Positions 25,749 through 55,156 of a stretch of 64,000 nucleotides of DNA are shown one piece after another. Position numbers and translations under genes: made by a program. The notes under the pieces are model-generated. The model was not told the origin of the DNA. It ran no database searches and saw only the letters and a list, made by a program, of their open reading frames with translations. How positions within the stretch are numbered: the first letter of the stretch is position 1; each line of letters starts with the position of its first letter. Source of the stretch: Patescibacteria group bacterium (GTDB lineage: Bacteria > Patescibacteriota > Minisyncoccia > UBA6257 > HR35); assembly GCA_030549845.1 (NCBI GenBank), contig JAUQQN010000001.1, positions 234,838 through 298,837 of the forward strand, in the 5' to 3' direction.

Positions 25749-25750
25749 GT

Positions 25751-28987: not shown

Positions 28988-29143
28988 ATTTTGTTTTTCA
29001 AGTTTTTTGTATTACTTATTAATTATAAACGAAATTTCATTGTATCTTTTAATAACATCAAATTTTGATATAATATTTATTAAGAAATAATTCAAACTAA
29101 ATTAGCAATTTGATGAAGCTTAACAAAAATATAAACTACATAC

Positions 29144-38613: not shown

Positions 38614-39963
38614 TTATTCATTTAAAATCCTGTTCTTTAAAACTTCTATTTCTTGAAATAAATCGAAGCTTTCTTGAATTTCTTTTTCAATTTTTTCGCA
38701 AGAATATAAAACTGTTGTATGGTCTCTTTTGTTTAATAATTCACCTATTGAATTATAAGATAATTTCCCTATTTCTCTTAATAAATACATTGCAACTTGT
38801 CTTGGTTTAATGAGTTCCTTTTTCCTTATTTTTTTAGTTAAATCTTCTTCTTTTATATTGTAAAATTCAGCTACTATTTTGAGAATTTTTTTAGGTGAAA
38901 TAGTTTTTATATTATGCCTTTGATATTCTTTAATAAGAGTTTCAATTTTTTCTGGTGTAGCATCCTTTAAAGACCTTAATTTAAAAGCGGTATAATTTAA
39001 AGCTCCTTCTAGCTCTCTTATATTTTTTGTAATTTTTTGAGCAATTATTTCTAAAATATAATCCGGTAAATAATAAGCCCTTTCTTGGTTTTTAAGTCTT
39101 AAAATAGCAAATCTTGTTTCAAAATCAGGAGGTGTAATATCTATTACTAAACCACCTTCAAATCTAGATTGTAGTCTTTCTTCAATATCAGGTATCATTT
39201 TAGGAGGTCTATCTGATGAAAAAACTATTTGTTTTCTTGCATTATATAACTCATTAAATGTATGAAAAAGCTCTTCTTGTGATTTGGTTTTACCTGAAAG
39301 AAAATGGACATCATCTAAAATTAGAACATCAACTTCTCTAAACTTCTGCCTAAATTCTTCTATATTTTGGTTTTTTAATGTATTTATAAGCTCATTAGTA
39401 AATTGTTCTGTTGTAGCATACCTCACTTTTTTAGTTGTGCTGTATTTTTTGACAATTTCATTCCCAATTGCTTGTAAAAGATGTGTTTTACCTAAACCAA
39501 CTCCACCCCAAATAAAAAGAGGATTAAATTTTTCACCCAAATTATTTACTACACCTTGCGCAGCTGCAAACGCTAACTCATTATTACTTCCTACTACAAA
39601 ATTTTCAAAAGTATATTTTGGATTAAGGTTAGTAGAAGGGCTTACCTCAAAAATTGTTATTTTTTGACTAAAAAGATATTTTCTAATTCTTGTCTTTTTA
39701 ACTTCATTGCTGCTTATTATGTATTCTATTGATTTAAGTTCTTTAAAAACTTCTTTAGCTGTTTTTAATAAAATTACATGGAATTTATTTTCTAACCAAT
39801 TTTTCACTAGTTTATTAGGAACTTCTAGTTGTAATATTCCGTTTAAAATCTGAAGAGGTACAACATTACTAAACCAAGTTTTAATTGTTGGTTTTGATAC
39901 TCTTTCTTCTAAAATTGTTATAATTTTTTGCCAACCAGTATTTAAATCAAGTTTATCTTCCAT
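38614..39963 (-). CDS. dnaA: Chromosomal replication initiator protein DnaA
   Basis: AAA+ Walker A GGVGLGKTHLLQAIGNE, Walker B VLILDDVHFL, and a C-terminal DNA-binding helix region. Confidence 0.9.
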   Translation of the reverse strand: MEDKLDLNTGWQKIITILEERVSKPTIKTWFSNVVPLQILNGILQLEVPNKLVKNWLENKFHVILLKTAKEVFKELKSIEYIISSNEVKKTRIRKYLFSQKITIFEVSPSTNLNPKYTFENFVVGSNNELAFAAAQGVVNNLGEKFNPLFIWGGVGLGKTHLLQAIGNEIVKKYSTTKKVRYATTEQFTNELINTLKNQNIEEFRQKFREVDVLILDDVHFLSGKTKSQEELFHTFNELYNARKQIVFSSDRPPKMIPDIEERLQSRFEGGLVIDITPPDFETRFAILRLKNQERAYYLPDYILEIIAQKITKNIRELEGALNYTAFKLRSLKDATPEKIETLIKEYQRHNIKTISPKKILKIVAEFYNIKEEDLTKKIRKKELIKPRQVAMYLLREIGKLSYNSIGELLNKRDHTTVLYSCEKIEKEIQESFDLFQEIEVLKNRILNE

Positions 39964-39998: not shown

Positions 39999-40115
39999 AT
40001 GAATACGGTTAAAAAGAAAAAAAAGAAAACAGGATTTTTAGCAAGGTCAAGTTATAAAGCAGGGAGAAAAATTTTGCAGAGAAGAAGGAGAAAAGGTAGG
40101 AAAAGATTAGCTTAA
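39999..40115 (+). CDS. rpmH: 50S ribosomal protein L34
   Basis: My translation: MNTVKKKKKKTGFLARSSYKAGRKILQRRRRKGRKRLA (cf. E. coli ...[30 protein letters not shown]). It is divergent from dnaA and below the ORF-track size cut-off. Confidence 0.85.
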   Translation: MNTVKKKKKKTGFLARSSYKAGRKILQRRRRKGRKRLA

Positions 40116-40453
40116 TGCTTCCGAAAAAATATAAATTAAAGAAAATAGACTTTGAAAATATTTTTAAAGTGGCGAAAAAATTTAATAATGAATATTTTGT
40201 GGTTTTAAAAGTAAATAAATTAGAAAAAAAATTTGGAGTATTTCCAAGTTTAAAAGAATTTAAAAAGGCGGTAGAGAGAAATAAAATCAAAAGGAGGATA
40301 TTTGAAATTATAAGATTAAATTTTGATAAAATACCTTTAGGGTGGTTTTTAATTTTTCCAAAAAAGAATTGTTTAAAATTAAACTTTGAAGAATTAAAGA
40401 AAAAATTGTTAGAAATAATTATTAACATAAAATCCACAAATTATTCACAATGA
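40115..40453 (+). CDS. rnpA: Ribonuclease P protein component
   Basis: KAVERNKIKRRIFEII RnpA motif. It overlaps the rpmH stop (TAATG). Confidence 0.85.
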   Translation: MLPKKYKLKKIDFENIFKVAKKFNNEYFVVLKVNKLEKKFGVFPSLKEFKKAVERNKIKRRIFEIIRLNFDKIPLGWFLIFPKKNCLKLNFEELKKKLLEIIINIKSTNYSQ

Positions 40454-41076
40454 AAGAAATTTTTTACGGAATTTTCGTTCATCCGCTTGTAGTTATTCTT
40501 TTAACTATTTATTTGTTTTTGAATGATTTTGGAATCACGATAATTTTAATGAGTCTTTTGTTAAAAATATTTTTAAGTCCACTTTCTTTTTTACAATATT
40601 TGGAAGAGAAGAAACTAAAAAAAATACGGGAAAGAGTTAATAAGGAAACTATAAATATAAAAGATTTTATAAAAAAAGTTGAAATTATGAATAAAATTTA
40701 CGAAGAAGAAAAATTCAGTCCATTTAAAAATATTTTGATTAACTTTTCTTTAATTCCATTTTACTTAGGAGCAATTCTAGCAATTTATGAATTAGTTAAA
40801 ACAATCCCAAACGCTTTATTTTTGAATTATGTAAATTTACTAAAACCGAATATTTATCTGGCTTTTATCACAACATTTTTTAATTTTTATTATGCTTATA
40901 ACCAACCAGGAGAAAATAGGAAAATTATGTTTTTTATTTTTGGAGTGCTTTCAGTAATACTTTTTACTTTACCATCCTTTTTAATTTTATATATATTAAC
41001 TTCGATTATTTTGAGTTTTTTAGAGAGAAAGATTTTCGATTGGTACTACGTAAAGTTTATTATCAAATCTGTTTAA
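40450..41076 (+). CDS. yidC: Membrane protein insertase YidC/Oxa1 family (short form)
   Basis: FGITIILMSLLLKIFLSPLSFLQY...MNKIYEEEKFSPFKNILINFSLIPFYLGAILAIY matches the YidC/SpoIIIJ core. Position after rnpA. Confidence 0.7.
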   Translation: MKEIFYGIFVHPLVVILLTIYLFLNDFGITIILMSLLLKIFLSPLSFLQYLEEKKLKKIRERVNKETINIKDFIKKVEIMNKIYEEEKFSPFKNILINFSLIPFYLGAILAIYELVKTIPNALFLNYVNLLKPNIYLAFITTFFNFYYAYNQPGENRKIMFFIFGVLSVILFTLPSFLILYILTSIILSFLERKIFDWYYVKFIIKSV

Positions 41077-42099
41077 AAATATTACACCTAAAGGAGTTAT
41101 AACAGGTTGTAAAATATCAAATTTTCCATCTAAATCAAAATACTTAAGTTCGTTTTTAATTGGATCAAAAATTACTAATCTATCATTAAAGTTTTCTTTG
41201 TAATAATACCACCTTGTTAAATCAGTGATAGACTGATTTAAGGGAACGCCACAAACAAGCTTTGTTTTAAATGTACATTTTTCTTTTAATGTTCCAAAAT
41301 TGAATTCTTTAAGTTTAATCCCTTTTGAGTTAATTAAATAACTTTTCCATTCTTTTTCTAATAAAGAAACAAAAATCAAGTCTTTTTTGTTAGATAATGC
41401 ACTTAAATTAATGCCATTTTCTAATAAAATTGTTTTTTCTCCTCTTTTGTTAATAAGAATTAATGGTGAAGAATATGTATATTTTAAGTTTTCATAAACT
41501 AAGATACCATTCTCAATTACATCAAACTCAGGGTTTAAAATATAAATATCTACAAAAGGTTCTAGAGATTTTTTAAAGGTTGCTAAATAAGAAAATTCAT
41601 TTGTTAATACATAGATATATAAATCATCTCCATACCAAAATGTTTTTTTAGTGCTTCTTGGAAGTTTTTCTATTCTATCTTTTGTGGTATCTAATAAATA
41701 ATAATCTTCATCTTTTTTAAAAATAATTTTCGTTTTTGAATTAGAAAAAGAGATATTTTTAATACCCTCTTTTTTATAAAATTCTTTATAAGTTTTATCT
41801 TCTATATTTATTTCTTTAATAGTTTTTGACTCTGGATCATAAGCATATATATAAGGATAATCTATTTCAGGATATAATAAAATTTTTTCATAAAGAATAT
41901 TAGGTTTTTTTACTTCTTTTTGTTCAATTCCTCCAACCGAAGGAGAAGGCTCTTCGATACTTTCTTCTATAGTTTTTTCTTCTGTTATTTTAATTTCCTC
42001 AGGTTGTTTTGGTTTCAATTCTTTATAAAAGTAAAAAATAAAGCTTATGAATAAGATCAAAACTAAAACGAAGAAAATTTTTTTAACTGTACCTATCAT
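41020..42099 (-). CDS. Hypothetical N-terminally anchored extracytoplasmic protein (first gene of the T4SS-like block in coordinate order)
   Basis: N-terminal TM helix, then a beta-rich 330-aa domain. No motif recognised. Confidence 0.45.
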   Translation of the reverse strand: MIGTVKKIFFVLVLILFISFIFYFYKELKPKQPEEIKITEEKTIEESIEEPSPSVGGIEQKEVKKPNILYEKILLYPEIDYPYIYAYDPESKTIKEINIEDKTYKEFYKKEGIKNISFSNSKTKIIFKKDEDYYLLDTTKDRIEKLPRSTKKTFWYGDDLYIYVLTNEFSYLATFKKSLEPFVDIYILNPEFDVIENGILVYENLKYTYSSPLILINKRGEKTILLENGINLSALSNKKDLIFVSLLEKEWKSYLINSKGIKLKEFNFGTLKEKCTFKTKLVCGVPLNQSITDLTRWYYYKENFNDRLVIFDPIKNELKYFDLDGKFDILQPVITPLGVIFLNRFDNKLYVVPIENLSL

Positions 42100-42728
42100 T
42101 TTTTTCTTTTTATAAAATAAATTATAAGAACAAAAACCAAAATAGCCCCAATTGTTGCTAAAGTTATCAAAAAAATATTAGAGAAAATTTTAGAAGGCAA
42201 GGGAATTTCTTTTTCAGTAGTTTTTGTTACCACTTTAAATTGTGTGGTTATAGGAACTAACTCCTTTATTGGTTGAGAAAATGGATAATTTGGGTTTTTT
42301 GCTGTTTTACAATCTAAGGGACATAAATTTTCTTCTCCTGGTTCACATATATTATTTTCATTACAAATTGTTAACCCTGATAAATCTAAATTTTCTTTTT
42401 GGTTATTTTTTGCATTGATTAGTTCTATTTTACTTAAATTTAAATAATTAGGAATTGTAATAAAATCAAAATAAGGTTCATTACTGGGAGAAAAATAAAT
42501 TATATCAATAATCTGATTTTTAGTGTTATAAATTAAAAGCAAATAATCTTTGCCATTTCTATTTACAGTTTCATTACTGTTATTTGAATATTCTGCTCCT
42601 TTAAAATAATTGAATTTTATTTCATTATTTTCTTTAATAAAATAGATAGTTAAAAATTTAGGAAATTCTGTTTCTCCCGTTTCGCTTTCTTCAAGTTCTT
42701 CAGGTAAAATTGTTAATATTTTTTTCAT
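42096..42728 (-). CDS. Hypothetical protein with C-terminal membrane anchor
   Basis: C-terminus IPLPSKIFSNIFLITLATIGAILVFVLIIYFIKRKK (TM followed by a basic tail). Cys-rich stretch CNENNICEPGEENLCPLDC. Confidence 0.45.
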   Translation of the reverse strand: MKKILTILPEELEESETGETEFPKFLTIYFIKENNEIKFNYFKGAEYSNNSNETVNRNGKDYLLLIYNTKNQIIDIIYFSPSNEPYFDFITIPNYLNLSKIELINAKNNQKENLDLSGLTICNENNICEPGEENLCPLDCKTAKNPNYPFSQPIKELVPITTQFKVVTKTTEKEIPLPSKIFSNIFLITLATIGAILVFVLIIYFIKRKK

Positions 42729-42742
42729 AGATTTATTTTAAA

Positions 42743-43837
42743 TTACTTAAGGTTAACTTTACCAATTTTACAGACTGTTATATAAGAAGGTTTTATTGAT
42801 GTGGCATTATTTAAATCTCCTTTACCGAAACCAGCAAATAGATCCAACCAAGCATCAGCTCCATTTTTTAACCCACCACCTGTATCAGTAACTATCAAAA
42901 TTTTACTGAAATTAGGATTACAAGAAATTTGAGTCCCATCTTTTTTATTGCACGCTAAAACCTTTAGGATATCAAAAGCATTAAAAACCATATCATTTCT
43001 ATTATGAGCTACAGTTATAAGAGGAATTAATGGGCCATAACTTCCATAAATTTTCCCAGTAAATGACTTTCCAACACTATCTGCTGTAGTTATAGCTTTG
43101 TTTTCATCTAAAACATCTTTGTTCTTAATTGATTCTTTTTGGGATGACATTGCTGCAGGACAATTATGAGGAGGATTTCCTGTGACTTTAATCCAAGTCC
43201 ATTTCCAACCATATCTACATTTATCTAATTCTTCCCCTGATTTTTTAGATTCATTTAAAATTTGTATCCCATCCAAGGCATTTAATACTTTCTTTGTTCC
43301 AGCAGATCCAAATAACCCTGTTCCTTGCAGGGTGACATCAGAAGAAAACTTATGCCAATTATATGTATCTTCATAAAAAGGAATATAATAAGTTGTTAAT
43401 CTAACCAAATAATTTTTAGATTTACATTCTCTTTGTTGTAATTGATTTATTTCTTCTTGCGGAATTCCTGTAACAGATATGGTGTAATCTAAATAATTTA
43501 TAGTAGTAGTGGTAACAGCAACATTTATTGATGGAAGTTGAATGTTAATTATTTTAAACATTATTAATCTTGCATTAAATATTTCTGGGTTTATCCAATA
43601 AAGCAAAACACCAGAAGAAAAAATAACAATTAAGCCTATAATAGAATTTCTCATCTGTCTTTTGCCTTCCATTTTTATATCAGGCACAACACTTAATAAG
43701 TTCTTAAAAGCTCCTATAAAAAACATAATAAAAGCAATAACAACAGCTAAAGCTACTATTAAGTTATAAATAGCTTGAATACATCCTTGTATAGTAACAC
43801 AACTTGAAGCAATAAACTGTTGTATATCTGGTATCAT
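42743..43837 (-). CDS. Membrane-anchored protein with a C-terminal 3D-like (MltA-fold) domain; putative peptidoglycan hydrolase of the T4SS-like cluster
   Basis: Long hydrophobic N-terminal segment (QAIYNLIVALAVVIAFIMFFIGAF). C-terminus VRLTTYYIPFYEDTY...ILIVTDTGGGLKNGADAWLDLFAGFGK resembles the 3D-domain blocks TAY...DTGGAIKG..IDLF. Confidence 0.5.
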   Translation of the reverse strand: MIPDIQQFIASSCVTIQGCIQAIYNLIVALAVVIAFIMFFIGAFKNLLSVVPDIKMEGKRQMRNSIIGLIVIFSSGVLLYWINPEIFNARLIMFKIINIQLPSINVAVTTTTINYLDYTISVTGIPQEEINQLQQRECKSKNYLVRLTTYYIPFYEDTYNWHKFSSDVTLQGTGLFGSAGTKKVLNALDGIQILNESKKSGEELDKCRYGWKWTWIKVTGNPPHNCPAAMSSQKESIKNKDVLDENKAITTADSVGKSFTGKIYGSYGPLIPLITVAHNRNDMVFNAFDILKVLACNKKDGTQISCNPNFSKILIVTDTGGGLKNGADAWLDLFAGFGKGDLNNATSIKPSYITVCKIGKVNLK

Positions 43838-44544
43838 TTTTCTATTTTTATTTGGTCTGAGCTAAATTCAATTGGATTATCTATATTTGTAACAATAACC
43901 TTTACTTCGCTTCCATTTTCGAGCCCTTCGGGATCAAATAAAAGGCTGTAATAAAATTTATTAAAAACATTCCAAGCAATTGATAAGTTATCTGAAGAAA
44001 AATTAAATGTCAAAGGAAAAAGTTTTTCATTTTTTTCGATTCTTCCAAAAGGCAAAACTACATTAAGTTCTTCTAAGTACCTTACAATAGAAACAGCAGG
44101 CAAATTTTTTTGTTTAAAAACAAAACTATATTTCTTGTCAAAACTTAAATCATTTGAATAAATTCTTACTTTTCCTGAAAGAAGTTTATTTTTTGATTCG
44201 AAGTGCAAAAGTGGTTTATGGGTCTCATACGTTGCTTGGCTTCCTTCAAAAAATAATACCCATTCATAATTTAATAAATCAGGCTTATATTTAGAAAAAT
44301 CTGCTTCAATTCCTATTAAATACTTATCTCCATTTTTCTGAAACGAAAAATAAGCAAAATCTTTTTGAGAAAAAACAAGGCTATAAGAAAAAAGCGAGAA
44401 AATAAAAATTATGAGTAAAATTTTAATAAATTGTGAATTAATTTTCATAAAATTATTATAAAATATCAAATGGTTTCTCCAATTACTTCTTCTTGTTGCT
44501 TTTTTACTTCTTTCTTTAATGACCTTAATCTTTTCACTCTCCAA
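43834..44544 (-). CDS. Hypothetical N-terminally anchored protein
   Basis: 236-aa ORF with an N-terminal TM helix. No motif. Confidence 0.4.
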   Translation of the reverse strand: MESEKIKVIKERSKKATRRSNWRNHLIFYNNFMKINSQFIKILLIIFIFSLFSYSLVFSQKDFAYFSFQKNGDKYLIGIEADFSKYKPDLLNYEWVLFFEGSQATYETHKPLLHFESKNKLLSGKVRIYSNDLSFDKKYSFVFKQKNLPAVSIVRYLEELNVVLPFGRIEKNEKLFPLTFNFSSDNLSIAWNVFNKFYYSLLFDPEGLENGSEVKVIVTNIDNPIEFSSDQIKIEK

Positions 44545-45005
44545 AGCCTTCCTCTAGAAACTAGCATTGTTAATGTTTTTATTGGAGCAATTTCTATTAA
44601 GCTTCCTATTATTGGAATAAAACCAAAGAATTCTATCGCAACTAAGAAAACATAAACACCTCCTTCAATTTGAGAAAGGTATCCATTTTTAGTATAATAA
44701 AATATCAAATATAAAAACAGTAAGGCTCCAGGTATCTCAAAAATCAAAGGAATGATTCCTAAAATACTTAAAGCTCCTGCACTTGCTAACCCTATTATAC
44801 TAAATATAAATTCAAAAATATCTGCTGTTATTAATAAAATAAAGCTTAGATACCAAATCCAGCTTATATAATGAGGTTCTTCCTCTTCTTCAGTTGTCTC
44901 TTCAAATTTTTTTAATCTTCCTGATTTTTGTAAATAATCTTCTTTTTTCTCTTCGGTGTAATCTAATTTTTTAATTTCAGAATTTGTTTCAAACACTGCC
45001 TTCAT
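44466..45005 (-). CDS. Small polytopic membrane protein immediately upstream of the VirB4-like ATPase
   Basis: Acidic N-terminus, then three to four TM helices (ISWIWYLSFILLITADIFEFIFSIIGLASAGALSILGIIPLIF...). Confidence 0.45.
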   Translation of the reverse strand: MKAVFETNSEIKKLDYTEEKKEDYLQKSGRLKKFEETTEEEEEPHYISWIWYLSFILLITADIFEFIFSIIGLASAGALSILGIIPLIFEIPGALLFLYLIFYYTKNGYLSQIEGGVYVFLVAIEFFGFIPIIGSLIEIAPIKTLTMLVSRGRLWRVKRLRSLKKEVKKQQEEVIGETI

Positions 45006-46798
45006 TGATTTTTCAAAGCTTCTTTTATTGCCATTAATTGCTCTAGGGAAGCTTTAATTATTTGATCTTCAGCATAAGATGCTAAAACATACAAAGGAAT
45101 TCTTTTAAGACCAGCAATTAAAATTCCTCTTCCTCTTTCAGCTTGTATTAAAAATCTTTTTTCGCCTTCAGATAAGGCAAATACTTGGCCTACTGTATCA
45201 ATTGTTGTTGGTGATTGTTTCATTAAAAATGTAAGTGCAGAGTTTGTAATTATAGGCTTACCATAAGGAGAGCTCAAAAAATCATCTATATCTTGAGTTA
45301 TTGTGGTTATTCCTAAAAGATATTTCCTACCTCTTTTTATTGCATTAAGCAAAAAATTAGCACCTGATTCATTTTTCATTATCCACCATGCTTCATCTAT
45401 TATTAAAATTCTTTTCTTTCTTTCTCTTCTTATTTTATTCATTAAATCATTCAAAACAATATACATACCAATAGGTCTTAACTCTTCTACTAAATCTTTA
45501 AACCCAAAAACAACTATTCTCTTTTTAAGATCAACATTTGTTGGTTGATTAATAAAACCACTAAAACTACCCTGAGTAAATGGATATAATTTTTCAGCTA
45601 TAGACTTACCTCCTTCTATACTTAAAAGAACTTTTTCTAAGTCATTTAATGTAGGGAAAACTTCTATTTTTCCAAAATCTGTATCAGGTAAAATATTAAA
45701 GGAAGCATACGTTTGGCTTATTGCTCTATCTAATATAGTAAGTTCTTCTGCGTTAAATTTCTCACCTGCTATAACTTCTAAAAGTCCAATTATATCACTA
45801 ACTTTTTCTTTGTATACATCTTCAGGATTTTCTCCCTCAAGTAAAGGAGGTAAATCAAGAGGGTTAATTTTGTGCTCTGATCTTAAAGAAATTGGTATAA
45901 AAGATCCTCCATAAACTTCAGCTATTGATTGATATTCATTTTCTGGGTCTAACACAATGACATCTTGCCCCATCATTAGATTTCTCATAATTTCAATTTT
46001 TGCAGTATAACTTTTACCTGATCCTGATCTTGCTAAAATTACCATATGAGCATTCTCAAAAGCAAATCTATCGAGAAGAACCAGGGAGTTGTCTTGCAAA
46101 TTAATACCCATCAAAATTCCTTTTTCCATAGACAATTCTGATGAGATAAATGGGAAAAATGAACTTGCGGCAGATGAGTTCATTACATATTCTATTTGAA
46201 GTCTATTAGAATTAAGAGGTAGTGTTGAAAAGAAAGCATCTTCTTGTTCAAATATAATTGGTTTTGCAACAATTAAATTACTTTCTAAAATTTTTATAAT
46301 TCTTTTTTCTTTTAATAATAATTCATCTTTATCTTCAGAAAATATAGTAAGATATAAAGCAACATTAAATATCTTTTCTCTTCCTTGTACTATAGCATCC
46401 CTTAATTCCTCTATATCATTGTAGGCTGTTTCAAGTTGTGGGTCTCTAGGCAAGCCTTTTTCTTCAATTTCTATTAATTGACTTTCTACTCTTAAAAGCT
46501 GTTTTTGTAATTGCTTAAGAATAACTCCAGGATCTCTAGGAACAAAATAAATCGAAAGATTAAAAGGCTCTTCTAATGCTAAAAGATTTTCTAACCAACC
46601 AGCAAACAAAAATCTTGGATAAGTAATTATAGCTATAACCTTTCCATAAACTTCTCCTATTTGAAAATCAGATACCCCAAATAAAGCTCCTGGAGGGGCT
46701 ATTATATTTTTTATTTTCTCAAAACCTTTTGCCTCCTCGATTTTAACGATAGGAATCCCTTTATTTGTTTGTTGGAAAAATGGTAATTTGAATGCCAT
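45002..46798 (-). CDS. VirB4/TrbE/CagE-family type IV secretion ATPase (short, 598 aa)
   Basis: Walker A VILARSGSGKSYTAKIE, Walker B RILIIDEAWWIMK, C-terminal ITTITQDIDDF, and an N-terminal VirB4-like domain. Confidence 0.8.
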   Translation of the reverse strand: MAFKLPFFQQTNKGIPIVKIEEAKGFEKIKNIIAPPGALFGVSDFQIGEVYGKVIAIITYPRFLFAGWLENLLALEEPFNLSIYFVPRDPGVILKQLQKQLLRVESQLIEIEEKGLPRDPQLETAYNDIEELRDAIVQGREKIFNVALYLTIFSEDKDELLLKEKRIIKILESNLIVAKPIIFEQEDAFFSTLPLNSNRLQIEYVMNSSAASSFFPFISSELSMEKGILMGINLQDNSLVLLDRFAFENAHMVILARSGSGKSYTAKIEIMRNLMMGQDVIVLDPENEYQSIAEVYGGSFIPISLRSEHKINPLDLPPLLEGENPEDVYKEKVSDIIGLLEVIAGEKFNAEELTILDRAISQTYASFNILPDTDFGKIEVFPTLNDLEKVLLSIEGGKSIAEKLYPFTQGSFSGFINQPTNVDLKKRIVVFGFKDLVEELRPIGMYIVLNDLMNKIRRERKKRILIIDEAWWIMKNESGANFLLNAIKRGRKYLLGITTITQDIDDFLSSPYGKPIITNSALTFLMKQSPTTIDTVGQVFALSEGEKRFLIQAERGRGILIAGLKRIPLYVLASYAEDQIIKASLEQLMAIKEALKNQ

Positions 46799-47427
46799 TA
46801 TTCCTCTAATGACTCTATTAATTCTTCAAACAATTTTATTGGAGCAAGCCCCCATCTTAAGCTAGGATTGTACATCTCATACAAAAGCTGCAAAAGTTCA
46901 TAATTATTTAATCTTATTGGTTGAAGTCCAATAGCAGAAAGTTTTTCTGTTATATAAATAACCCTAGTCTCTAATTGCTCTAATTTTGTATAAAATTCCT
47001 CTTCTTTAATTTTTGTTTTTTTACCAAATTTTTTTATTTCAATTACTTCTCCCTCATATGGTACAACAATATAAAATATTTTTTTCATTATTTTGTGGGT
47101 TTCTACATAGCTTTGTATAAATTTAATGTATTCTTCTAGTTGTAATTTAATCAATGGTTCATCTTCTACTTCAAGTCTTTCTTTTAAGTAATTTAAATAA
47201 CCCTCTATATACGCATACCTTGAAACAACTAATATTTGTAAATTAAAATCTAGCCCATCTAGAAATTCTTTAAAAGCACCAACTACTGCTTCCTTTTCTT
47301 GTTCTGAAAGTAATGTAAAATTAATTCCCGGAACAGCTAAAATAGCTCTTAAACTTCCATCTTCTAATATAAGAGTGTCATTTTTTATATCTTTTACTTG
47401 TATTAAAGATGCAGTTGTTTTTACCAT
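46798..47427 (-). CDS. Hypothetical cytoplasmic protein within the T4SS-like cluster
   Basis: 209 aa, no TM, no motif. Confidence 0.4.
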   Translation of the reverse strand: MVKTTASLIQVKDIKNDTLILEDGSLRAILAVPGINFTLLSEQEKEAVVGAFKEFLDGLDFNLQILVVSRYAYIEGYLNYLKERLEVEDEPLIKLQLEEYIKFIQSYVETHKIMKKIFYIVVPYEGEVIEIKKFGKKTKIKEEEFYTKLEQLETRVIYITEKLSAIGLQPIRLNNYELLQLLYEMYNPSLRWGLAPIKLFEELIESLEE

Positions 47428-47948
47428 CTTCTTTTAGGAAATTTTGGAATAGGGAAATTAATATAAGGATTAAAAGGATTATAACCTCTTTCTATAGCTT
47501 TTTTTACATATACAGCTAAAGATTTATTTACTTCTTTTTCTTCTTTTGGTTTTTCATAACTTACAAGAGGGAGCTCTTTTTGTGTTTCAGTTTCTGTTAT
47601 TTCTTCTAATTCAATATATTTTTCTAAGAGAGGAGATTTTATATATTGAGTAGTAATTTTAACTTCTTCTTTCCATATATATTTTTTAGGAGATAATAGA
47701 ATCATGATAAGTTTTGGAAGAAAGGCATAAATATATTTATTATTTATTTTCAACCAACCTATAATAAAAGCTGCTAAAACAATAATTCCAGAAAGAAATA
47801 CTGCAATAAAGCCACCAAATAATTTAAATGTAGCAAAGGATAACAAAAATGCCCCAAAACTTATAAAAAGCTGAGGAAATGTAAAAGAAATCATTCCTAA
47901 ACGTAATTTATCTTCTATTGTTATATATTGTGGTACACTAAATCTCAT
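47421..47948 (-). CDS. PrgI-family (VirB3-like) small membrane protein
   Basis: MRFSVPQYITIEDKLRLGMISFTFPQLFISFGAFLLSF matches the PrgI N-terminal pattern (VP..I...EDKL..GLT.RQ) followed by two TM helices. Upstream of the VirB4-like gene, as in Gram-positive conjugative T4SS. Confidence 0.55.
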   Translation of the reverse strand: MRFSVPQYITIEDKLRLGMISFTFPQLFISFGAFLLSFATFKLFGGFIAVFLSGIIVLAAFIIGWLKINNKYIYAFLPKLIMILLSPKKYIWKEEVKITTQYIKSPLLEKYIELEEITETETQKELPLVSYEKPKEEKEVNKSLAVYVKKAIERGYNPFNPYINFPIPKFPKRRW

Positions 47949-47956
47949 TAAAATAA

Positions 47957-48595
47957 TTATAAATTAGAAAGATCTAAAACTTCTCCCTCTTTTTTTTCTT
48001 CTTTTGGTTTTTTGATTACCACAATTTTAGAAGATATATCCTCAGTTGGCTTAGGAGGCTCCCAAGAAATCGTTTGTTTTATATCAATTGTAGATTTAGG
48101 AACTTCTGTCTTTATTTGTTGGAGTTTAGATAAATCTATGGGAGTAGTTGGCTTAGGAACCTCGATTGCTTCTTTTGTTTTTACTACTTTTTGTAAATTT
48201 AGAATTTTTTGTGGTGGAACTTCTTTGGCTTTCTGTATTAGATCAATCACTTCTTTTGGCACTTCTTTTTTGATTTTTTGAGTCTTTTCTTTCTCTTCTT
48301 TCCATAATGGTTCTACAAGTGGCAGGAATCTTGCTTTTATATGATATTCTAATTGTTTAGCTTTTTCTGTATCATAATTTAATCTATTTCTAATAATTTC
48401 CGTTAAGCTTTCTTTTTCTAAATCAAATCTTTTTATTGCTAAATCTTGCAATAAATAAATAAATTCAACCTCATATTCATCACTAATTTCAAATTTCTTT
48501 TTATATTCTTCAAAAAAAGAATAAAAATCATCAGAATATAAAAATTCTTTTACTCTATCTGGTGCTTCTGTATATGCATCTATAAATGATTTCAT
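47957..48595 (-). CDS. Hypothetical protein
   Basis: 212 aa with a K/E-rich C-terminal half. No motif. Confidence 0.4.
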   Translation of the reverse strand: MKSFIDAYTEAPDRVKEFLYSDDFYSFFEEYKKKFEISDEYEVEFIYLLQDLAIKRFDLEKESLTEIIRNRLNYDTEKAKQLEYHIKARFLPLVEPLWKEEKEKTQKIKKEVPKEVIDLIQKAKEVPPQKILNLQKVVKTKEAIEVPKPTTPIDLSKLQQIKTEVPKSTIDIKQTISWEPPKPTEDISSKIVVIKKPKEEKKEGEVLDLSNL

Positions 48596-48619
48596 TTTTA
48601 AATATTATAAAAATAAATT

Positions 48620-51118
48620 TTATGTAGAACTTGCACCACCACCCCCTCCAGTAGATTGGGCTGATTCAGATTTTTCTTTTTCTCTCGCCTCTTCTAGTGC
48701 CCGAATTCTTTCCTCAATTTCTTCTCTTTCTCTTCTAGCTTCTGCCCTATAAGGTCTTTCAAAAATCCCAGCAATCTTTTCAAGCAGAGGAGTTAATTCT
48801 TCGGGATTTGAAAGTTGGACACCTTGTTTTTGTATTAATTGTTGTAATTGTACGATTTCTTGTTGTAGGTCATGTATTTCTTCAAGTCTTTGCTGTAATT
48901 CGGTTTTTCTTTGGTTCAAGTTAATTTTTTCATCTTCACTTGCTCCTTGTATTTCCCCATCTATGGCTTGTATTTCTTGGTTTAATGAATTAATTTCTCT
49001 ACCTAGTTCTACTTCAATACCTTTTAATATCTGCTGTAGGTCTATTTTCCCAATAAGTTTTTGAGGATCTTTTGCCCAATCTTTTACTGTCTTATGTGAT
49101 ATTTCTCCTTGAGAATAAGAACCCATTAGTTGTCTTCTAATCTCTTCTTCTAATTTTGGTTGAAGCGTATCTGGTATTTTTTGGCCTCCAATCACTAACC
49201 TCTGAGCTATTTGTGGTCCTAGCTCTCTTATACTTCTTGCAGCTGGAGAAGCTCTAATAATTCCTTGAAGTCGTTGTGGACCTATATTTCTTTCGACATC
49301 TTGATAAATACCTAAATCATGTAAATACTTTAAATTCTTTGGATTCCAGAATATATCATTTAAATCTCTACCAGAAGTAAACATAAAATAATTGGATAAT
49401 AATGTTTTAACTTCAGCCTCATCTGCTCCAGCTTTTCTAAGTAAAGTTCCTATTGTTTCTAATCCAACCTCGCGATGACTAATAATTTCTGGAAGGGTTG
49501 ATAATACCTCAGCTCGTTTTTCTCTTCCTTCAGTAATTTTTGTTAAAATACATCTTAATTTCTTACCACATAATGCTTTACGAGTACTTAAATCTAATTT
49601 ATCCCAATCCAAAATACTAGCAATTTTAAATAGTTCATCTGCACTTAGTTTTGAATTCATTACTTTAGCTAATTCTTCTTTGAATGGTCCTCTATATCTT
49701 TCAAATATTCCAGCAATCTCTTCAGGGCTTTTACCTTCCATGTGGTCACTGAAAATAGCTTCAGCTTCTTTTTTAACTTTTTCCTTTGTTGGTTTTTCTA
49801 ATTTTTCACCTACTCCTTTGGTCCATAACCCTAAACTTCTAATGAATCCAACCCTACTTTTTTCTAAAGCTTTTCCTATAGTAGAAATTCCTCCTCCTAT
49901 TTTTGATATAGCTGGTCTTACTGTCCACATTCCTACTCCTGCTGCAGCAGCACCAGCCAATCTCCAACCTTTCAATGCCAATCCATAAGTATAATTTGCA
50001 AAAACACCTCCTAAACTTAAAGAAACTTTCATTACAATATAGAAATAAAGAACAAGGAAAACAAATTTAGTAGAGACAGCAAAGAAAATACTTAAAGTAG
50101 TTTTTTCACTTTCTTCTAGTCCTGCTATAGGTTCTGCTTCTAATGAAGGTTTCATTAAATTTTGTAATTTCTCTTCATTAAATGCACCAGTTATGCCTTC
50201 TGTTTTTGTTGTTGCAACTAAAGCTACTCCTATTAAAATTAAGACAATTAAAATCAAAACATTGACTGTCCAATTTAGAAACCATTGCCACCAAGTATTC
50301 CAATATTTTTCATATCCAGGTGTTGCATATGCTATAGCAGCTAAAGGAAGTAAGCCTGCTAAAAATCCAATAATAAAGTATCTTCCAATAAATATTCCCA
50401 CAAAAGACCACAAAGTAAGAGAAAATATAAGAGAAAGAACTATACCTACTAAATTAGCTACTATATTTAATGCTCTTCTTAAAGCTGCTGCTTGATCTGG
50501 AGTTAGATCAGTTTGATATTTAGTAGCATTTTCAATCATTCCTTTTAATTGTTCTGTTATAAAACCTGGAGGTACAGCATTAAATATTGCATAAATCAAT
50601 GTACCTAATTTTGAAGAGTTATAATTTTCAGTCATTAAATTTGCAGAAAGCAAAATACTTCTTTGTATAAAATTGATTGTTCCAAAAAATACTTTTGCTA
50701 AAAGAAACGAAAAGTTTATTAAAAATGCTATAAGTATTACACCGAATAAAATCCTTCTCGCCTGGTCTTCTTTATTTAAGATCCAATTAATTCCTGAATA
50801 TAATGCTAAAAATACTAAAATTACATAAGATAGATTTTTGAAGAATTCCCATAAAAATGATGCAAGCCCTCCTTCTTCAAATGGATTTAAAACGCTGAAT
50901 ATGTCTATAATAATTCTTGCTAGTCTTGCGAAGATATTAAAAAGAAAAATCACTCCGGTTAAAACAATATAAGATACATAATCTATTATTCCAAAAACAA
51001 GCGCAGGAATTTTAGCCCAGAAATAATATCCTAATAAGCCTAATCCCAAAGCTCCAAGTAAACTTAGCCCTATAACTACCCAAACCACTGCTTTATTTTT
51101 TAATTTTTGATTTTTCAT
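48620..51118 (-). CDS. Large polytopic membrane protein (VirB6/TrbL-like candidate) with long coiled-coil C-terminal domain
   Basis: 832 aa. At least six predicted TM helices in the N-terminal 400 aa, then a hydrophilic coiled-coil region ending in STGGGGGASST. Confidence 0.5.
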   Translation of the reverse strand: MKNQKLKNKAVVWVVIGLSLLGALGLGLLGYYFWAKIPALVFGIIDYVSYIVLTGVIFLFNIFARLARIIIDIFSVLNPFEEGGLASFLWEFFKNLSYVILVFLALYSGINWILNKEDQARRILFGVILIAFLINFSFLLAKVFFGTINFIQRSILLSANLMTENYNSSKLGTLIYAIFNAVPPGFITEQLKGMIENATKYQTDLTPDQAAALRRALNIVANLVGIVLSLIFSLTLWSFVGIFIGRYFIIGFLAGLLPLAAIAYATPGYEKYWNTWWQWFLNWTVNVLILIVLILIGVALVATTKTEGITGAFNEEKLQNLMKPSLEAEPIAGLEESEKTTLSIFFAVSTKFVFLVLYFYIVMKVSLSLGGVFANYTYGLALKGWRLAGAAAAGVGMWTVRPAISKIGGGISTIGKALEKSRVGFIRSLGLWTKGVGEKLEKPTKEKVKKEAEAIFSDHMEGKSPEEIAGIFERYRGPFKEELAKVMNSKLSADELFKIASILDWDKLDLSTRKALCGKKLRCILTKITEGREKRAEVLSTLPEIISHREVGLETIGTLLRKAGADEAEVKTLLSNYFMFTSGRDLNDIFWNPKNLKYLHDLGIYQDVERNIGPQRLQGIIRASPAARSIRELGPQIAQRLVIGGQKIPDTLQPKLEEEIRRQLMGSYSQGEISHKTVKDWAKDPQKLIGKIDLQQILKGIEVELGREINSLNQEIQAIDGEIQGASEDEKINLNQRKTELQQRLEEIHDLQQEIVQLQQLIQKQGVQLSNPEELTPLLEKIAGIFERPYRAEARREREEIEERIRALEEAREKEKSESAQSTGGGGGASST

Positions 51119-54100
51119 TTAATATAAATTTTTTTTGGCTTAAATATATTAATTATCTCAAAAATGTTTGCTAAAAATCCTACTCCTATATTGAAAATTC
51201 TTTTTATTAAAGAGACCCTTTGAGTTTTTTCAGGTAAAGATTGTGATGTAGATTCTTCAGCAGGTAATTCCTCTTCCTGTTGTTGAATTAATTTATTATT
51301 TATTTCCTCTTCAATTTTATCAATTAAAGAATTATATTCTTCGCATAGATTATTAATTTCTTCAATTTTTTCATTTATTCGATCCAAGTTTTGTTCAATA
51401 TTAGTTTGTATGCTTTGAATTTCTTCTGGCTTAAATTGACTTAGATAATCTTCCCAAATTTTATCTGTTTCTTTTTGCATTTCTTGTATTAATTGATCTT
51501 TTTGTTGCTGTAAATTATTTAATTCTTGTAATTTAGTCCAAAAATCTTGATTTTGTTGTGTAGAGTTTCTATATAATTCTATTACTTCTTTAAAGGCCTT
51601 GCTTGTTTTTAAAATAAGCTCTAAAGACTCATCCATTCTTAAATATATAGCTTCTCCTTTTTCAGCACTCCATTTATTTGGTACCTTAGAAATGGCAAAT
51701 TCCCACTCTAAAATATTAGTTCTTTTTGCATATTCCATGGTATTTGAAGCATAATTCTCCAAAGCATTGAAGTAATCATAAAGTTTATTTAAGTCATTTT
51801 GGATTGCTTCAGGAGTTGTAGAGGGTGGATTTGTTATTAAATTTGTTAAGAAATTATAAGATGCCATAACTAGGTTTTCTTGTTGAATACCACTTTTTGA
51901 TGCTGGTGAATTGTATAAAGAATAAAATATATGTATAAGATCATGAACAATAAAGTATATTTTATACTCAGGTTGTTGATAACCATATTTCCAATCTGTG
52001 CCATCATGAAAGTCTGTATCTAGCTGGCTATAATGGAATCTTCTTCTGAAAAATTCATAATCTTTATCCTTCATACAATTTGTAATGTGGGTAGGATAAA
52101 AATCATTAAAGAATGATAATTTTTCTCTTTTTCCTAAAGAAGGAGCACAATCTGTGTATTTTGTGCCTTCACCTACTCGATATATCTTTGTACCAGTGGC
52201 TACTGCAATGTAATCTCTTGGGAAATAATTATCATCTAAATCCAAAGGCGGTCGTTCTAGATCAATATACCTTTCAAAAAATATTGCTATTTTATTTGAA
52301 TATAAATTACTAGCTCCGTATAAGCTTTGAGATATTTTTGAATTTATTTCTCTAATAAGATTATCAATTTGAGATTTAATTGAATTTATTTGTTCATCCA
52401 ATTTATTTATTTTTTCGGTATAACTAGCAGTTATAGAATCAATTTGATTTAAAATATTTTGGTTTATTAATTTTTCTAATGTAGTTGTGTTTGAAGATAT
52501 TGAATTGGAAATCTCATTTAGTTCATTTTCTAAATTTTTGAAGTTATAAACTATTTCATTTAATCTTTCTATACTTTCTGTAGTTTGCTCTTCTTTTAAT
52601 TTTTGAATTATATTATCAATTTCATTTTTTGACCTTTCGGAAGTAGAAGTATAATCTTGAATATTATTCATAAGTTGATTTATAGCCTTCACTATATTAA
52701 TTACTCTTGAATTTAAACCAATAAGATTTCCTTTTTCTATTTCAGTAATTTTTCTTAATTGTGATTCCATAGCAGATTTACATACTTGTTGCGATCCTGG
52801 AATTGATACAACCTGAAATTCATTGCATACTACATTTACTCTTTCAGGTCGATAGGCATTTTTAATATCAGCCATATAAGAAGAGTTACTTGAAGACCTA
52901 GCCTCCAAGCTTGCAAAACCTTTATCAATTATCTTAAACAATTTACTAGAAAGCCAACTTCTTATAAAAGCTACTAAAACATTTGTTGCTCGCTCTTGTG
53001 ATTTAAATATTTCTAAGGGGGATGTTAATATTTGCTCTTTTAACTTTTCATAATCTGCTGGGGATGATAGGGTTGGCCCAGGTATTAAACAATTAGGATC
53101 TTCACCAGGAATATCTTTTTGAGCCTCTATCTTTTGTTTAATTTCTTGTAATTTTTTATCCAACTTATCAATTTGAGTTTTATCTCCTTTTAGCATAGCA
53201 TCTTCTAATTGTCTTGAAACTTCTTCATATTCTACATCTGCCCAAGTTTTTAAACATTGAGTTTTTGGTTTAAAGGTTAAACCACCGGGTTGTTGAATTT
53301 GAGTTTGAAATTGTTCATGTTCTTTATTTAAAGCTTCAATCAATGCTGCTGCATATCTATCTTGTATAAGCAAACAATTTGAAATTTTAGCAGCGTCTAA
53401 AATAGGTTTATTATAGTCAAAAAATATAGTTTGAATAGCACTAAATTCGGAATCAGGATAAATTTGTGCTAGTAATTTTTTGAAATTAAGTTTATTTTTT
53501 ATAGTTCCAAAAATATTAGCTAGCATTTTAAAACTAGGCTTTTCTATCTTAGCTACATAAGTTTCTGGTTTTTTTAAGCTATAAAGATTTTCTTCTTGTA
53601 AAGAAGCAGGTTGAATAAGTTCTAAATTTTTATATACTTGCTGCTCCTCGTATTTCTCGCATATTCTTTTAGAGGCAATATTAAATTCTTGATATTTATA
53701 GAAAGCATTCAAAAACCCCATTAATTTAATTGAATTTTCTGCATTTCTTGCAACCTCATAACTCAAATCTTTTGTTGAATATAAAAGATTAATTAAACAA
53801 CCTTTTAATTCTTCTGGGATACAGGGCTGCTCTTTATATTTATTAAATATTCTATTAAATACTCTTTGATGTTCTAAAAAAATCTTAAAATTTCTATAAG
53901 CTTCTATATCTTTTATATAATTTTTCAAAATTCTTCCATATATGAATTCATTAAGTTTATTAATTAATTGAAATTTAAAATATTGAAGGGCATCCTGTAA
54001 AGCAAGATGAATAGAAGTTTTAATACTTGCTAAAACATTTTTAGTTGCTTCTTTTATAGAACTTGCTATAGCTTTATTTGTTTCTGGAGCTCCTACTGGA

Positions 54101-54423
54101 ACTTTTCCAATTAGTGAACCTAAAATAGATTCTACTGCTTCAATTATTAAACTGGATAAGAAATCTCTAATCAAGCTTTCAAAAAACCCAGGGCCTTTTG
54201 GAAGATTCCCGGCAAAAGCGTCTAATTCTGTTATATAATCAGTTGTTGATGTTGAAAATTCTTCGGTTTCTTCAATTTCAATAGGTTTTAAATTGCATTG
54301 TAATTTATAAGAAGATAAATCAATTTTTTCAGGGAAATCATCTGATTGAGAAAATATAAATCTTACTGGCAAGGCATTGAATAAAATAACAAAGATTATA
54401 AAAATTGATAAAAATTTTTTCAT
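51115..54423 (-). CDS. Giant secreted coiled-coil protein (1102 aa) with C-terminal membrane anchor
   Basis: Signal peptide MKKFLSIFIIFVILFNALPVRFIFSQ, long helical/coiled-coil stretches, and a C-terminal hydrophobic segment IFNIGVGFLANIFEIINIF. Confidence 0.5.
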   Translation of the reverse strand: MKKFLSIFIIFVILFNALPVRFIFSQSDDFPEKIDLSSYKLQCNLKPIEIEETEEFSTSTTDYITELDAFAGNLPKGPGFFESLIRDFLSSLIIEAVESILGSLIGKVPVGAPETNKAIASSIKEATKNVLASIKTSIHLALQDALQYFKFQLINKLNEFIYGRILKNYIKDIEAYRNFKIFLEHQRVFNRIFNKYKEQPCIPEELKGCLINLLYSTKDLSYEVARNAENSIKLMGFLNAFYKYQEFNIASKRICEKYEEQQVYKNLELIQPASLQEENLYSLKKPETYVAKIEKPSFKMLANIFGTIKNKLNFKKLLAQIYPDSEFSAIQTIFFDYNKPILDAAKISNCLLIQDRYAAALIEALNKEHEQFQTQIQQPGGLTFKPKTQCLKTWADVEYEEVSRQLEDAMLKGDKTQIDKLDKKLQEIKQKIEAQKDIPGEDPNCLIPGPTLSSPADYEKLKEQILTSPLEIFKSQERATNVLVAFIRSWLSSKLFKIIDKGFASLEARSSSNSSYMADIKNAYRPERVNVVCNEFQVVSIPGSQQVCKSAMESQLRKITEIEKGNLIGLNSRVINIVKAINQLMNNIQDYTSTSERSKNEIDNIIQKLKEEQTTESIERLNEIVYNFKNLENELNEISNSISSNTTTLEKLINQNILNQIDSITASYTEKINKLDEQINSIKSQIDNLIREINSKISQSLYGASNLYSNKIAIFFERYIDLERPPLDLDDNYFPRDYIAVATGTKIYRVGEGTKYTDCAPSLGKREKLSFFNDFYPTHITNCMKDKDYEFFRRRFHYSQLDTDFHDGTDWKYGYQQPEYKIYFIVHDLIHIFYSLYNSPASKSGIQQENLVMASYNFLTNLITNPPSTTPEAIQNDLNKLYDYFNALENYASNTMEYAKRTNILEWEFAISKVPNKWSAEKGEAIYLRMDESLELILKTSKAFKEVIELYRNSTQQNQDFWTKLQELNNLQQQKDQLIQEMQKETDKIWEDYLSQFKPEEIQSIQTNIEQNLDRINEKIEEINNLCEEYNSLIDKIEEEINNKLIQQQEEELPAEESTSQSLPEKTQRVSLIKRIFNIGVGFLANIFEIINIFKPKKIYIK

Positions 54424-55079
54424 AATTTTTCTAAAATTTTTTCTTGTAAATTTGCTAAATCGTTAAGAATTAATAATAACGAAGTTCCTTTTTCTGAATC
54501 TTCTGTATTAGAAAGTTCAACCAGAGCCTCTCCTAACATCCCTAGTATTATTACTTCTAATTTGTGAAATTCATAATAACTTTTAGGTACCTCTATTTTA
54601 GAAATATTATTTGCCACACTTAAAATATATTGTCCATTGGCCCTTAAATTGTTTTTATCATTAAAATCTAAATTAACATATTTTAAATTTTCTATTTCTT
54701 TTTTAAGTTCCTCAGCATATACTCTTTCATCCTTTAGGTTGTTTATTTTTATATTTTTTACATAATTGTCTATTTTTTTAATTAATTTTGCCTCAAGTTC
54801 AATTCTTTTTCCTCCTGTACTTATCATCTCTGCTTTTAAATAATCCAAGGCTGCTTTTTCTAAATATAAATCCTTACCTTCTAATACTTGTAATAAATCT
54901 TTAAACTCAGGATATTTGTTAAGTTCAGATTTGTAAAAATTAACGTCCTTTTTATAATTTGTTTTCTTGCTTTGGGTTTTAGAACCTGATATTAAAGAAA
55001 TAAACCCTAAAATAAAAATTATGAATAGAAAGAATAAGATGATAAGCAATAATAATTTTTTGTTTTTTAAAATTTTCAT
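54420..55079 (-). CDS. Hypothetical N-terminally anchored protein
   Basis: 219 aa, N-terminal TM. First gene (highest coordinate) of the minus-strand block. Confidence 0.4.
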   Translation of the reverse strand: MKILKNKKLLLLIILFFLFIIFILGFISLISGSKTQSKKTNYKKDVNFYKSELNKYPEFKDLLQVLEGKDLYLEKAALDYLKAEMISTGGKRIELEAKLIKKIDNYVKNIKINNLKDERVYAEELKKEIENLKYVNLDFNDKNNLRANGQYILSVANNISKIEVPKSYYEFHKLEVIILGMLGEALVELSNTEDSEKGTSLLLILNDLANLQEKILEKL

Positions 55080-55084
55080 AGTTG

Positions 55085-55156
55085 AGCCAGTAGCGGGATT
55101 CGAACCCGCAACCTACCGCTTACGAAGCGGTCGCTCTACCATTGAGCTATACTGGC
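55085..55156 (-). tRNA. tRNA-Thr (anticodon CGU)
   Basis: Hand-folded. Acceptor GCCAGTA/TACTGGC, anticodon arm ACCGC-TTCGTAA-GCGGT, T arm GCGGG-TTCGAAT-CCCGC. Confidence 0.8.

Follow-up and report, generated by a model that had tools for sequence, protein, structure and literature searches.

A compact 12-gene type IV secretion locus beside dnaA in a Paceibacteria genome, probably resident and non-conjugative

The DNA analysed here is a stretch of 64,000 nt (hereafter the window) from contig JAUQQN010000001.1 of a Patescibacteria group bacterium, which carries on its minus strand, at positions 41020-55079, a block of genes centred on a VirB4-type ATPase of the kind found in type IV secretion systems (T4SS). 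The block comprises 12 co-oriented open reading frames (ORFs), and neighbouring ORFs either overlap by 1–7 nt or lie no more than 24 nt apart, figures that presuppose that the 236-aa ORF begins at the ATG at 44448, as its homologues do. Because of this close packing, the block looks like an operon. An initial annotation, made from the letters and a list of ORFs, had counted fourteen co-oriented, mostly overlapping genes; their orientation and tight packing hold, and the count is corrected to 12. The block DNA has ~27% GC and the same base composition as its flanks, with no break. A promoter and terminator scan performed no better on the block than on shuffles in this AT-rich DNA and was uninformative. 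The genes, in transcription order, are:

54420..55079, minus: first gene, 219-aa protein with an N-terminal transmembrane (TM) segment at residues 9–27 and a helical ectodomain; no family
51115..54423, minus: 1102-aa secreted or surface protein with a signal-like segment and coiled-coil-like stretches; no family
48620..51118, minus: 832-aa polytopic protein, putatively an extended VirB6-like protein from its hydrophobicity and homologues at the same position
47957..48595, minus: 212-aa soluble protein, no TM segment; no family
47421..47948, minus: 175-aa PrgI/VirB3-like protein, assigned through its family consensus against Pfam
46798..47427, minus: 209-aa TrsD-like protein, assigned through NCBIfam TrsD and the Mbov_0397 VirB4 model
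45002..46798, minus: 598-aa VirB4 ATPase of CD1110 / MPF_FATA type, assigned through NCBIfam conju_CD1110
44466..45005, minus: 179-aa membrane protein with three hydrophobic helices and an acidic N-terminus; no family
43834..44448, minus: ~204-aa exported or N-anchored beta-rich protein (236 aa as the longest ORF); no family
42743..43837, minus: 364-aa putative fusion of a pilin hairpin with a 3D/MltA-type domain, assigned through PF18895 and, for the 3D part, the intermediate P0023
42096..42728, minus: 210-aa C-terminally anchored protein with the Cys motif CNENNICEPGEENLCPLDC; no family
41020..42099, minus: last gene, 359-aa N-anchored protein, TM segment at residues 8–26; no family above cut-off

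Judged by its sequence, the 598-aa protein is the VirB4 ATPase of the monoderm CD1110 family. It scores 367.2 bits against the NCBIfam model conju_CD1110 (cut-off 325, E = 1.7e-109), lies above the Pfam cut-offs for P-loop_TraG (E = 3.5e-25), AAA_10 and CagE_TrbE_VirB (E = 1.4e-8), and has the VirB4 C-terminal domain 4AG5 as its closest solved relative (E = 4.8e-35). The Walker A (GSGKS) and Walker B (IIDEAW) motifs on which the initial annotation had based a VirB4/TrbE call are present, and the curated CD1110 cut-off bears that call out. VirB4 models score 89–367 bits on this protein, whereas DUF87/HerA reaches 44 bits and is confined to the P-loop region (residues 248–318). An FtsK/HerA identity, which together with neighbours devoid of T4SS folds had been named as the finding that would overturn the proposal, is not borne out: the ATPase is of VirB4 type and its neighbours show T4SS components. 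In a phylum-wide survey (Quinonero-Coronel et al. 2025, Microb Genom, PMC12102498), Patescibacteria VirB4 proteins form a monophyletic clade related to MPF_FATA.

The 209-aa product encoded immediately upstream of virB4, overlooked in the initial annotation, is on profile evidence a TrsD-like protein, a free-standing homologue of the VirB4 N-terminal domain. It matches NCBIfam TrsD over model positions 22–200 of 201 (E = 3.4e-7), a hit within the survey criterion (independent E-value <1e-3, >50% coverage) and below the NCBI cut-off (30 vs 200 bits). It also matches positions 102–278 of the Mbov_0397 VirB4 model (E = 2.3e-11) and the N-terminal region of Pfam TraC_F_IV. The TrsD-like gene adjoins virB4 in 72 of the 80 related loci compared with the window.

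One gene further upstream, the 175-aa protein has two TM helices and contains VPQYITIEDKLRLGMISF. As a single sequence it matches Pfam PrgI below the cut-off (19.6 bits, cut-off 27; E = 1.4e-3); the consensus of its 24 syntenic orthologues reaches 33.1 bits for PrgI (cut-off 27) and 27.5 bits for TcpE, so that position, motif and family-level match agree with the two-TM PrgI/VirB3-like protein that had been placed two genes upstream of virB4. Alignment of the locus families to single Prg/Pcf proteins of pCF10 with hhalign was uninformative, and even PrgI against PrgI yielded a probability of 8.8%. The PrgI-like, TrsD-like and VirB4 proteins match the successive segments 27–107, 102–278 and 292–893 of the fused VirB3-VirB4 model Mbov_0397, which derives from a Mycoplasma integrative and conjugative element (ICE); these consecutive matches suggest that the motor corresponds to one ancestral polypeptide split in three.

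The 832-aa protein is polytopic, as first described, with ~8–9 hydrophobic helices in residues 1–372; its C-terminal half is hydrophilic and in part coiled coil. No family matches it directly, and its proposed likeness to VirB6/TrbL comes through some of its positional homologues and a weak structural model. A homologous gene occupies the same place in 39 related loci; four of these 39 homologues match Pfam TrbL/VirB6, one matches TrbL_4 and four match NCBIfam membrane-protein families of monoderm mobile elements. An alignment-seeded search for homologues of the VirB6-like family returned at least seven proteins. In an AlphaFold2 model of residues 1–430 (predicted local distance difference test, pLDDT, 54.6), TrwI/VirB6 came top in two independent fold comparisons, with weak support.

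The 364-aa protein appears to combine two modules. Its membrane anchor, whose nature had been overlooked, is identified by profile match as a VirB2-like T4SS_pilin hairpin (PF18895, residues 15–82, 34.8 bits, cut-off 26.6), and no other ORF in the window resembles PF18895. Since this hairpin is fused to a C-terminal extension of ~280 aa, pilus formation is doubtful. The C-terminal domain has no direct match in Pfam, including the 3D family (PF06725) to which the initial annotation had likened it in proposing an anchored protein with a VirB1-like role. A profile of the C-terminal ~245 residues, searched against 1.84 billion representatives, retrieved five clusters only. One of these, P0023 (hmmsearch E = 5e-6), carries a clear Pfam 3D domain (E = 3.5e-17), and hhalign of the C-terminal profile against P0023 gave a probability of 97.2% (E = 4.6e-11). 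Within the family, the motifs TDTGG and WLDLF are invariant; we equate them with Asp positions two and three of the 3D motif as known from MltA. Through this intermediate, the proposal of a divergent 3D/MltA-type domain and putative VirB1-like hydrolase is supported, and a VirB2-type hairpin topology would place the domain outside the membrane. An AlphaFold2 model of the 364-aa protein, built on an eight-sequence alignment, reached a pLDDT of 50.9; its Foldseek matches were meaningless and were discarded.

Long extensions of the hairpin are also common in the related loci. In 61 of the 80, we found 82 PF18895-like ORFs with a median length of 301 aa and a maximum of 1101 aa, and 52 of the 82, lying near virB4, extend at least 100 aa beyond the hairpin. 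Long examples are L039:2054-4549, L054:12377-14860 and L053:538-3843. Most extensions match no family; those that do carry Peptidase_M23 (two), 3D (one), LTD (one) or a LAS-fold domain (one), and relatives in the wider database carry Peptidase_C39_2 or Peptidase_M15_4. The hairpin is thus mostly the N-terminal module of much longer proteins, which cannot be simple pilus subunits. The 2025 survey treats PF18895 proteins as pilins, and fusion to hydrolase domains goes unmentioned there (PMC12102498). A broader proposal, which we hold to be rather unlikely, is that the Patescibacteria "pilins" serve as a scaffold, dependent on the T4SS, from which domains for wall degradation and adhesion are displayed or delivered at the site of contact; on this view the essential T4SS would breach the host envelope for feeding, rather than translocate effectors or DNA in the usual sense.

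For seven of the 12 proteins no family match was obtained, in line with the first impression that most partners belong to no recognisable family. All of them except the 212-aa protein carry a signal-like or anchor segment, and they diverge much faster than VirB4. The 1102-aa protein, for instance, is 26–44% identical in relatives whose VirB4 is 73–82% identical. It has an N-terminal hydrophobic signal-like segment, coiled-coil-like stretches at ~556–701 and 980–1060 and a weakly hydrophobic C-terminus; family searches and a PDB search returned only weak coiled-coil-type matches, at residues 556–701, consistent with the secreted coiled-coil protein described at the outset. At this position, loci further removed encode a large protein of 590–1150 aa with a signal peptide.

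Several of the smaller proteins also recur in place. An orthologue of the 219-aa protein lies at the same position in the related loci L002–L006 and L011. The 212-aa protein has a conserved N-terminal part of ~110 aa and a K/E/P-rich tail, and most related loci encode an orthologue or a similar-sized TM-less protein between the VirB6-like and PrgI genes. The 179-aa protein has a sub-threshold match to DUF4112; similar-sized proteins with three TM segments follow virB4 in relatives, as this gene does, and its candidacy as a pilin was rejected because hhalign found it not pilin-like. The 236-aa ORF in its longest form reaches a TTG at 44544, and the start used by homologues yields ~204 aa; this beta-rich protein has no Pfam match and gave only chance matches in a sequence search of the PDB. 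The 210-aa protein, with orthologues in L002, L005, L006 and L007, has no obvious signal peptide and carries its conserved Cys-rich motif just before the C-terminal TM anchor. The consensus of the 359-aa family matches DPPIV_N weakly (E = 9e-4, below cut-off), and the protein, which has no sequence relative in the PDB, is possibly a beta-propeller. Its gene and the convergent yidC share 57 nt at their 3' ends, and an N-anchored protein of 365–410 aa is encoded immediately ahead of yidC even in loci whose VirB4 identity is as low as 46%. None of the consensus sequences of the 210-, 179-, 212-, 219-, 236- and 359-aa families rose above a Pfam cut-off.

On one side, the block is flanked by a tRNA-Thr(CGU) gene, DivIC, YraN and leuS, and on the other by yidC, rnpA, dnaA and dnaN. 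Positions of the boundary tRNA and of the genes recognised by Pfam on the yidC side are:

55084..55156, minus: tRNA-Thr(CGU), upstream boundary, same strand as the block
40450-41076, plus: yidC
40115-40453, plus: rnpA
38614-39963, minus: dnaA
37389-38516, minus: dnaN

The full block and both flanks are collinear, gene for gene, in L002, L005 and L006, the relatives with 73–82% identical VirB4; L003 spans only the upstream flank to the pilin-domain gene. At 44–48% VirB4 identity a core persists, namely the large secreted protein, the VirB6-like protein, the small soluble protein, PrgI, TrsD and VirB4, then further on an N-anchored ~380-aa protein next to yidC, rnpA, dnaA and dnaN. Among 44 related loci with enough flank, dnaA lies 1.6–9.7 kb (median 5.2 kb) downstream of virB4 in 41, and the distance in the window is 5.0 kb. 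The tRNA-Thr gene, likewise overlooked at first and situated 4 nt upstream of the first block gene between a DivIC-like gene and the block, is found at the same place in six related loci (L002:1661-1733, L003:1672-1744, L004:2256-2328, L005:1101-1174, L006:1639-1710 and L011:2502-2573), which share tRNA, block and flanks at VirB4 identities of 61–82%. It is directly upstream of the first T4SS gene in L002, L003 and L005 and ~20 nt away in L006, and may be co-transcribed with the block. No att-like repeat was detected: the direct-repeat search gave AT-rich chance matches, with no tRNA-Thr repeat at the other end of the block. Collinearity of block, flanks and tRNA, together with the lack of att repeats and of a compositional break, indicates a resident, vertically inherited locus and not an ICE or its remnant, as the initial annotation had also judged.

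Pfam scans of the ORFs in the window found no VirD4/TcpA coupling ATPase, relaxase or integrase/recombinase, in agreement with what had first been reported, and the P-loop ORFs in the window are TsaE, PilB, DnaA and VirB4 only. To recognise an oriT, a relaxase family would have to be known. The block had also been placed next to yidC and the origin region; the adjacency to yidC, rnpA, dnaA and dnaN stands, and the origin itself is indicated by these marker genes only, as GC skew keeps its sign at dnaA, following gene orientation, and DnaA boxes show no enrichment (20 found, 17.8 expected). Should the origin lie in the spacer between dnaA and rnpA, transcription of the T4SS operon would run head-on into replication.

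The closest VirB4 genes (82–89% identity) occur in metagenome-assembled genomes (MAGs) labelled 'Candidatus Pacebacteria/Paceibacter', and the host, which belongs to Paceibacteria, has the reduced genome of a Patescibacterium. The VirB4 protein is deposited as MEM4648335.1, 'MAG: ATP-binding protein [Candidatus Pacearchaeota archaeon]'. The window also holds the bacterial markers 23S rRNA, DnaA, DnaN, RnpA, YidC and a class A penicillin-binding protein, and the archaeal label looks like a mix-up of Pacebacteria with Pacearchaeota. Under its archaeal name the source MAG may be missing from the data set of the 2025 survey. A close homologue of the 832-aa protein is labelled Nitrososphaerota.

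The nearest functional precedent is the T4SS cluster SEML1_0004-0019 of the saccharibacterium Candidatus Southlakia epibionticum ML1, which lies beside dnaA-dnaN-recF and is ordered VirB6-like, PrgI, TrsD-like, VirB4, hydrolases and exported Ig-like proteins, with pilins in addition; almost every one of its genes was essential for epibiotic growth by transposon sequencing (Wang et al. 2023, Cell, PMC10633639). It shares with the window the gene order, the adjacency to dnaA-dnaN, PF18895 domains, the lack of a coupling protein or relaxase in the cluster, and large (~1000–1100 aa) uncharacterised proteins. Unlike the window, which has one VirB6-like protein and no recognisable NTF2/VirB8-like protein, it encodes six free-standing small pilins (0014–0019), two VirB6-like proteins and an NTF2-like protein (0012). 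Its hydrolases are of lysozyme, CHAP and DD-peptidase type, whereas the candidate hydrolase of the window is of 3D type and fused to a single pilin domain; essentiality is known for S. epibionticum only. The synteny comparison with Saccharibacteria and other Patescibacteria that had been suggested thus returned the same order in S. epibionticum and collinear loci in Paceibacteria.

Across the phylum, TrsD, PrgI, VirB6 and PF18895 pilins are found near virB4, relaxases are rare, homologues of the type IV coupling protein are usually encoded far from virB4, and in Paceibacteria the T4SS lies close to dnaA/dnaN/rnpA (PMC12102498). The window does not differ in kind from these Paceibacteria systems; it shares with them an MPF_FATA-related VirB4, TrsD, PrgI and PF18895, and its 832-aa protein would be the VirB6. 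A 2025 review regards the Patescibacteria T4SS as a recognised branch of the superfamily whose function is unsolved, and notes that it is essential while ComEC-dependent competence is dispensable (PMC12857230). The locus is therefore an ordinary member of a known, functionally unsolved system whose interpretation was already published in 2023–2025.

Outside the phylum, the monoderm MPF_FATA systems (Prg/Pcf of pCF10, Trs of pGO1/pSK41, CTn2 CD1110 and Mbov_0397) likewise combine a CD1110-family VirB4 with a PrgI/TcpE-type VirB3 and TrsD, and have a VirB6-type protein, the putative role of the 832-aa protein here; monoderm conjugative T4SS also have a wall hydrolase gene downstream of virB4. 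These conjugative systems reside on plasmids or ICEs, whereas the window locus occupies a fixed chromosomal site; no VirD4 of PcfC type, relaxase, PrgB-type adhesin or recognisable VirB8-like PrgL/TraM was found in the window, and its hydrolase is of 3D type on a pilin hairpin where PrgK is of lysozyme/CHAP type. Bordetella Ptl, Brucella VirB and Helicobacter ComB resemble the window system in being VirB4-powered, in having no cognate VirD4 in the locus and in a non-conjugative role, probable for the window system. Their substrates are known (toxin for Ptl, effectors for Brucella VirB, DNA for ComB), and they differ in being MPF_T systems of diderms, built with a VirB7/9/10 outer-membrane core; growth does not require them.

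Together, these observations favour, with a probability of about 0.8, a resident, vertically inherited Paceibacteria T4SS of the Patescibacteria clade derived from monoderm MPF_FATA, non-conjugative and serving the interaction of epibiont and host. The VirB4-centred, Gram-positive-type T4SS-like set proposed at the outset has thus been recovered in its parts, with VirB4, TrsD-like, PrgI-like, putative VirB6-like, pilin and 3D components. In such a machine, a VirB4 hexamer would be anchored to the membrane, at the VirB6-like channel, by the PrgI-like and TrsD-like proteins; the hairpin would present the 3D domain outside the membrane, where it would open the wall locally; and the fast-evolving 219-, 1102-, ~204-, 210- and 359-aa proteins may form an extracellular part that contacts the host cell. 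The apparatus would then move proteins or other macromolecules between epibiont and host, or maintain an essential contact between them, rather than conjugate. That the orthologous cluster of S. epibionticum is essential for epibiotic growth agrees with this role in host interaction.

Several points weigh against this reading. The proposed function is drawn by orthology from one studied species of Saccharimonadia, and the case for co-transcription comes from gene packing. Pfam and NCBIfam searches returned nothing convincing for the 219-, 1102-, 212-, 179-, ~204-, 210- and 359-aa proteins, and no VirB8-like (NTF2-fold) protein was recognised, the small anchored proteins having no Pfam, NCBIfam or PDB sequence match to one; the phylum survey likewise did not find VirB8 in most classes (PMC12102498). 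For the 832-aa protein, the VirB6 fold match is weak and derives from a low-confidence model. The C-terminus of the 364-aa protein is assigned to 3D/MltA transitively, and its family does not conserve the first of the three Asp residues that make up the 3D motif. Finally, the search for a coupling protein and a relaxase covered 64 kb of a 302.6-kb contig, and coupling proteins are often encoded far from virB4 in Patescibacteria (PMC12102498).

Among other explanations, a machine for DNA uptake (ComB-like or Ced-like) or DNA release, as a source of nucleotides or genes for a genome unable to synthesise nucleotides, would fit the window's lack of a recognised coupling protein and relaxase and the co-localization of T4SS loci with comF, recG and radA in the class ABY1 (PMC12102498). 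VirB4 also matches the archaeal DNA-import ATPase CedB below threshold (E = 1.9e-17), but at 63 bits against a cut-off of 700 this match reflects the shared VirB4/HerA-type P-loop. Moreover, no comEC, comF or recombination genes lie beside the block in the window, and competence of S. epibionticum, the only relative amenable to genetics, needs ComEC and type IV pili: deletion of comEC abolishes transformation and leaves viability unaffected, whereas the T4SS is essential (PMC12857230). We therefore consider this explanation unlikely; of the candidate roles first listed, a DNA-uptake or competence-like organelle or one for cell-cell contact, DNA uptake is the less likely option given the ComEC-dependent competence of the relative.

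A working conjugation apparatus, with coupling protein, relaxase and oriT elsewhere in the genome, appears clearly improbable, although the closest non-Patescibacteria families are all conjugative and the inspected DNA amounts to 64 kb of the contig. The survey recorded 5,713 VirD4 homologues in 2,918 Patescibacteria genomes, only 148 of them near virB4, so that a distant coupling protein would not be unusual, but relaxases are few across the phylum, with 109 recorded in 103 genomes (PMC12102498). In S. epibionticum the distant VirD4 homologue is non-essential while the T4SS is essential, and the locus is fixed at one chromosomal site over deep divergence.

A decaying ICE remnant that inserted at tRNA-Thr and lost its mobility genes would account for the tRNA at the upstream edge and for a window with no integrase, relaxase or coupling protein found, but it has next to no probability and is rejected, because the 12 ORFs are all intact and closely packed, the six related loci share tRNA-Thr, block and flanks, no att-like repeat is present, base composition equals that of the flanks, and the orthologous genes are essential in a relative.

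The rest of the window holds mostly housekeeping genes, and the other scanned ORFs match non-mobile-element families or none. Nearby cell-surface genes encode a Lamin-tail-domain protein (24033-25277) and a Laminin_G_3/ConA-like lectin-domain protein (29110-30906), the latter ORF overlapping at its start a predicted tRNA-Met (29144-29215), and a PilB-type T2SSE ATPase of type IV pili lies at 33445-35127. The complete bacterial 23S rRNA gene, at 19286-22229, accounts for a GC peak of 0.39–0.56 at 18–22 kb; neither a 16S nor a 5S rRNA gene was detected in the window, and the rRNA genes thus appear unlinked. At 59078-59149 lies a tRNA-Ile with the anticodon UAU, which is uncommon in bacteria, most of which read AUA with a lysidine-modified CAU tRNA. 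The tRNA-Lys and tRNA-Ala genes (25675-25823) overlap a 163-aa ORF at 25317-25808 that is unlikely to be a true gene.

No T4SS before that of Patescibacteria had been reported as essential to the bacterium that encodes it, and the locus described here confirms the published architecture in a low-GC (~27%) Paceibacteria lineage: the VirB3/TrsD/VirB4 motor is split, a putative VirB6 is extended, dnaA is close by and the window holds no recognised relaxase. The sole modestly new detail may be the pilin-hydrolase fusion, a detail inside a known system and not a new kind of system. As a compact 12-gene version with a single pilin-hydrolase, the locus could guide work on the role of the "pilins" and on the indispensable accessory proteins.

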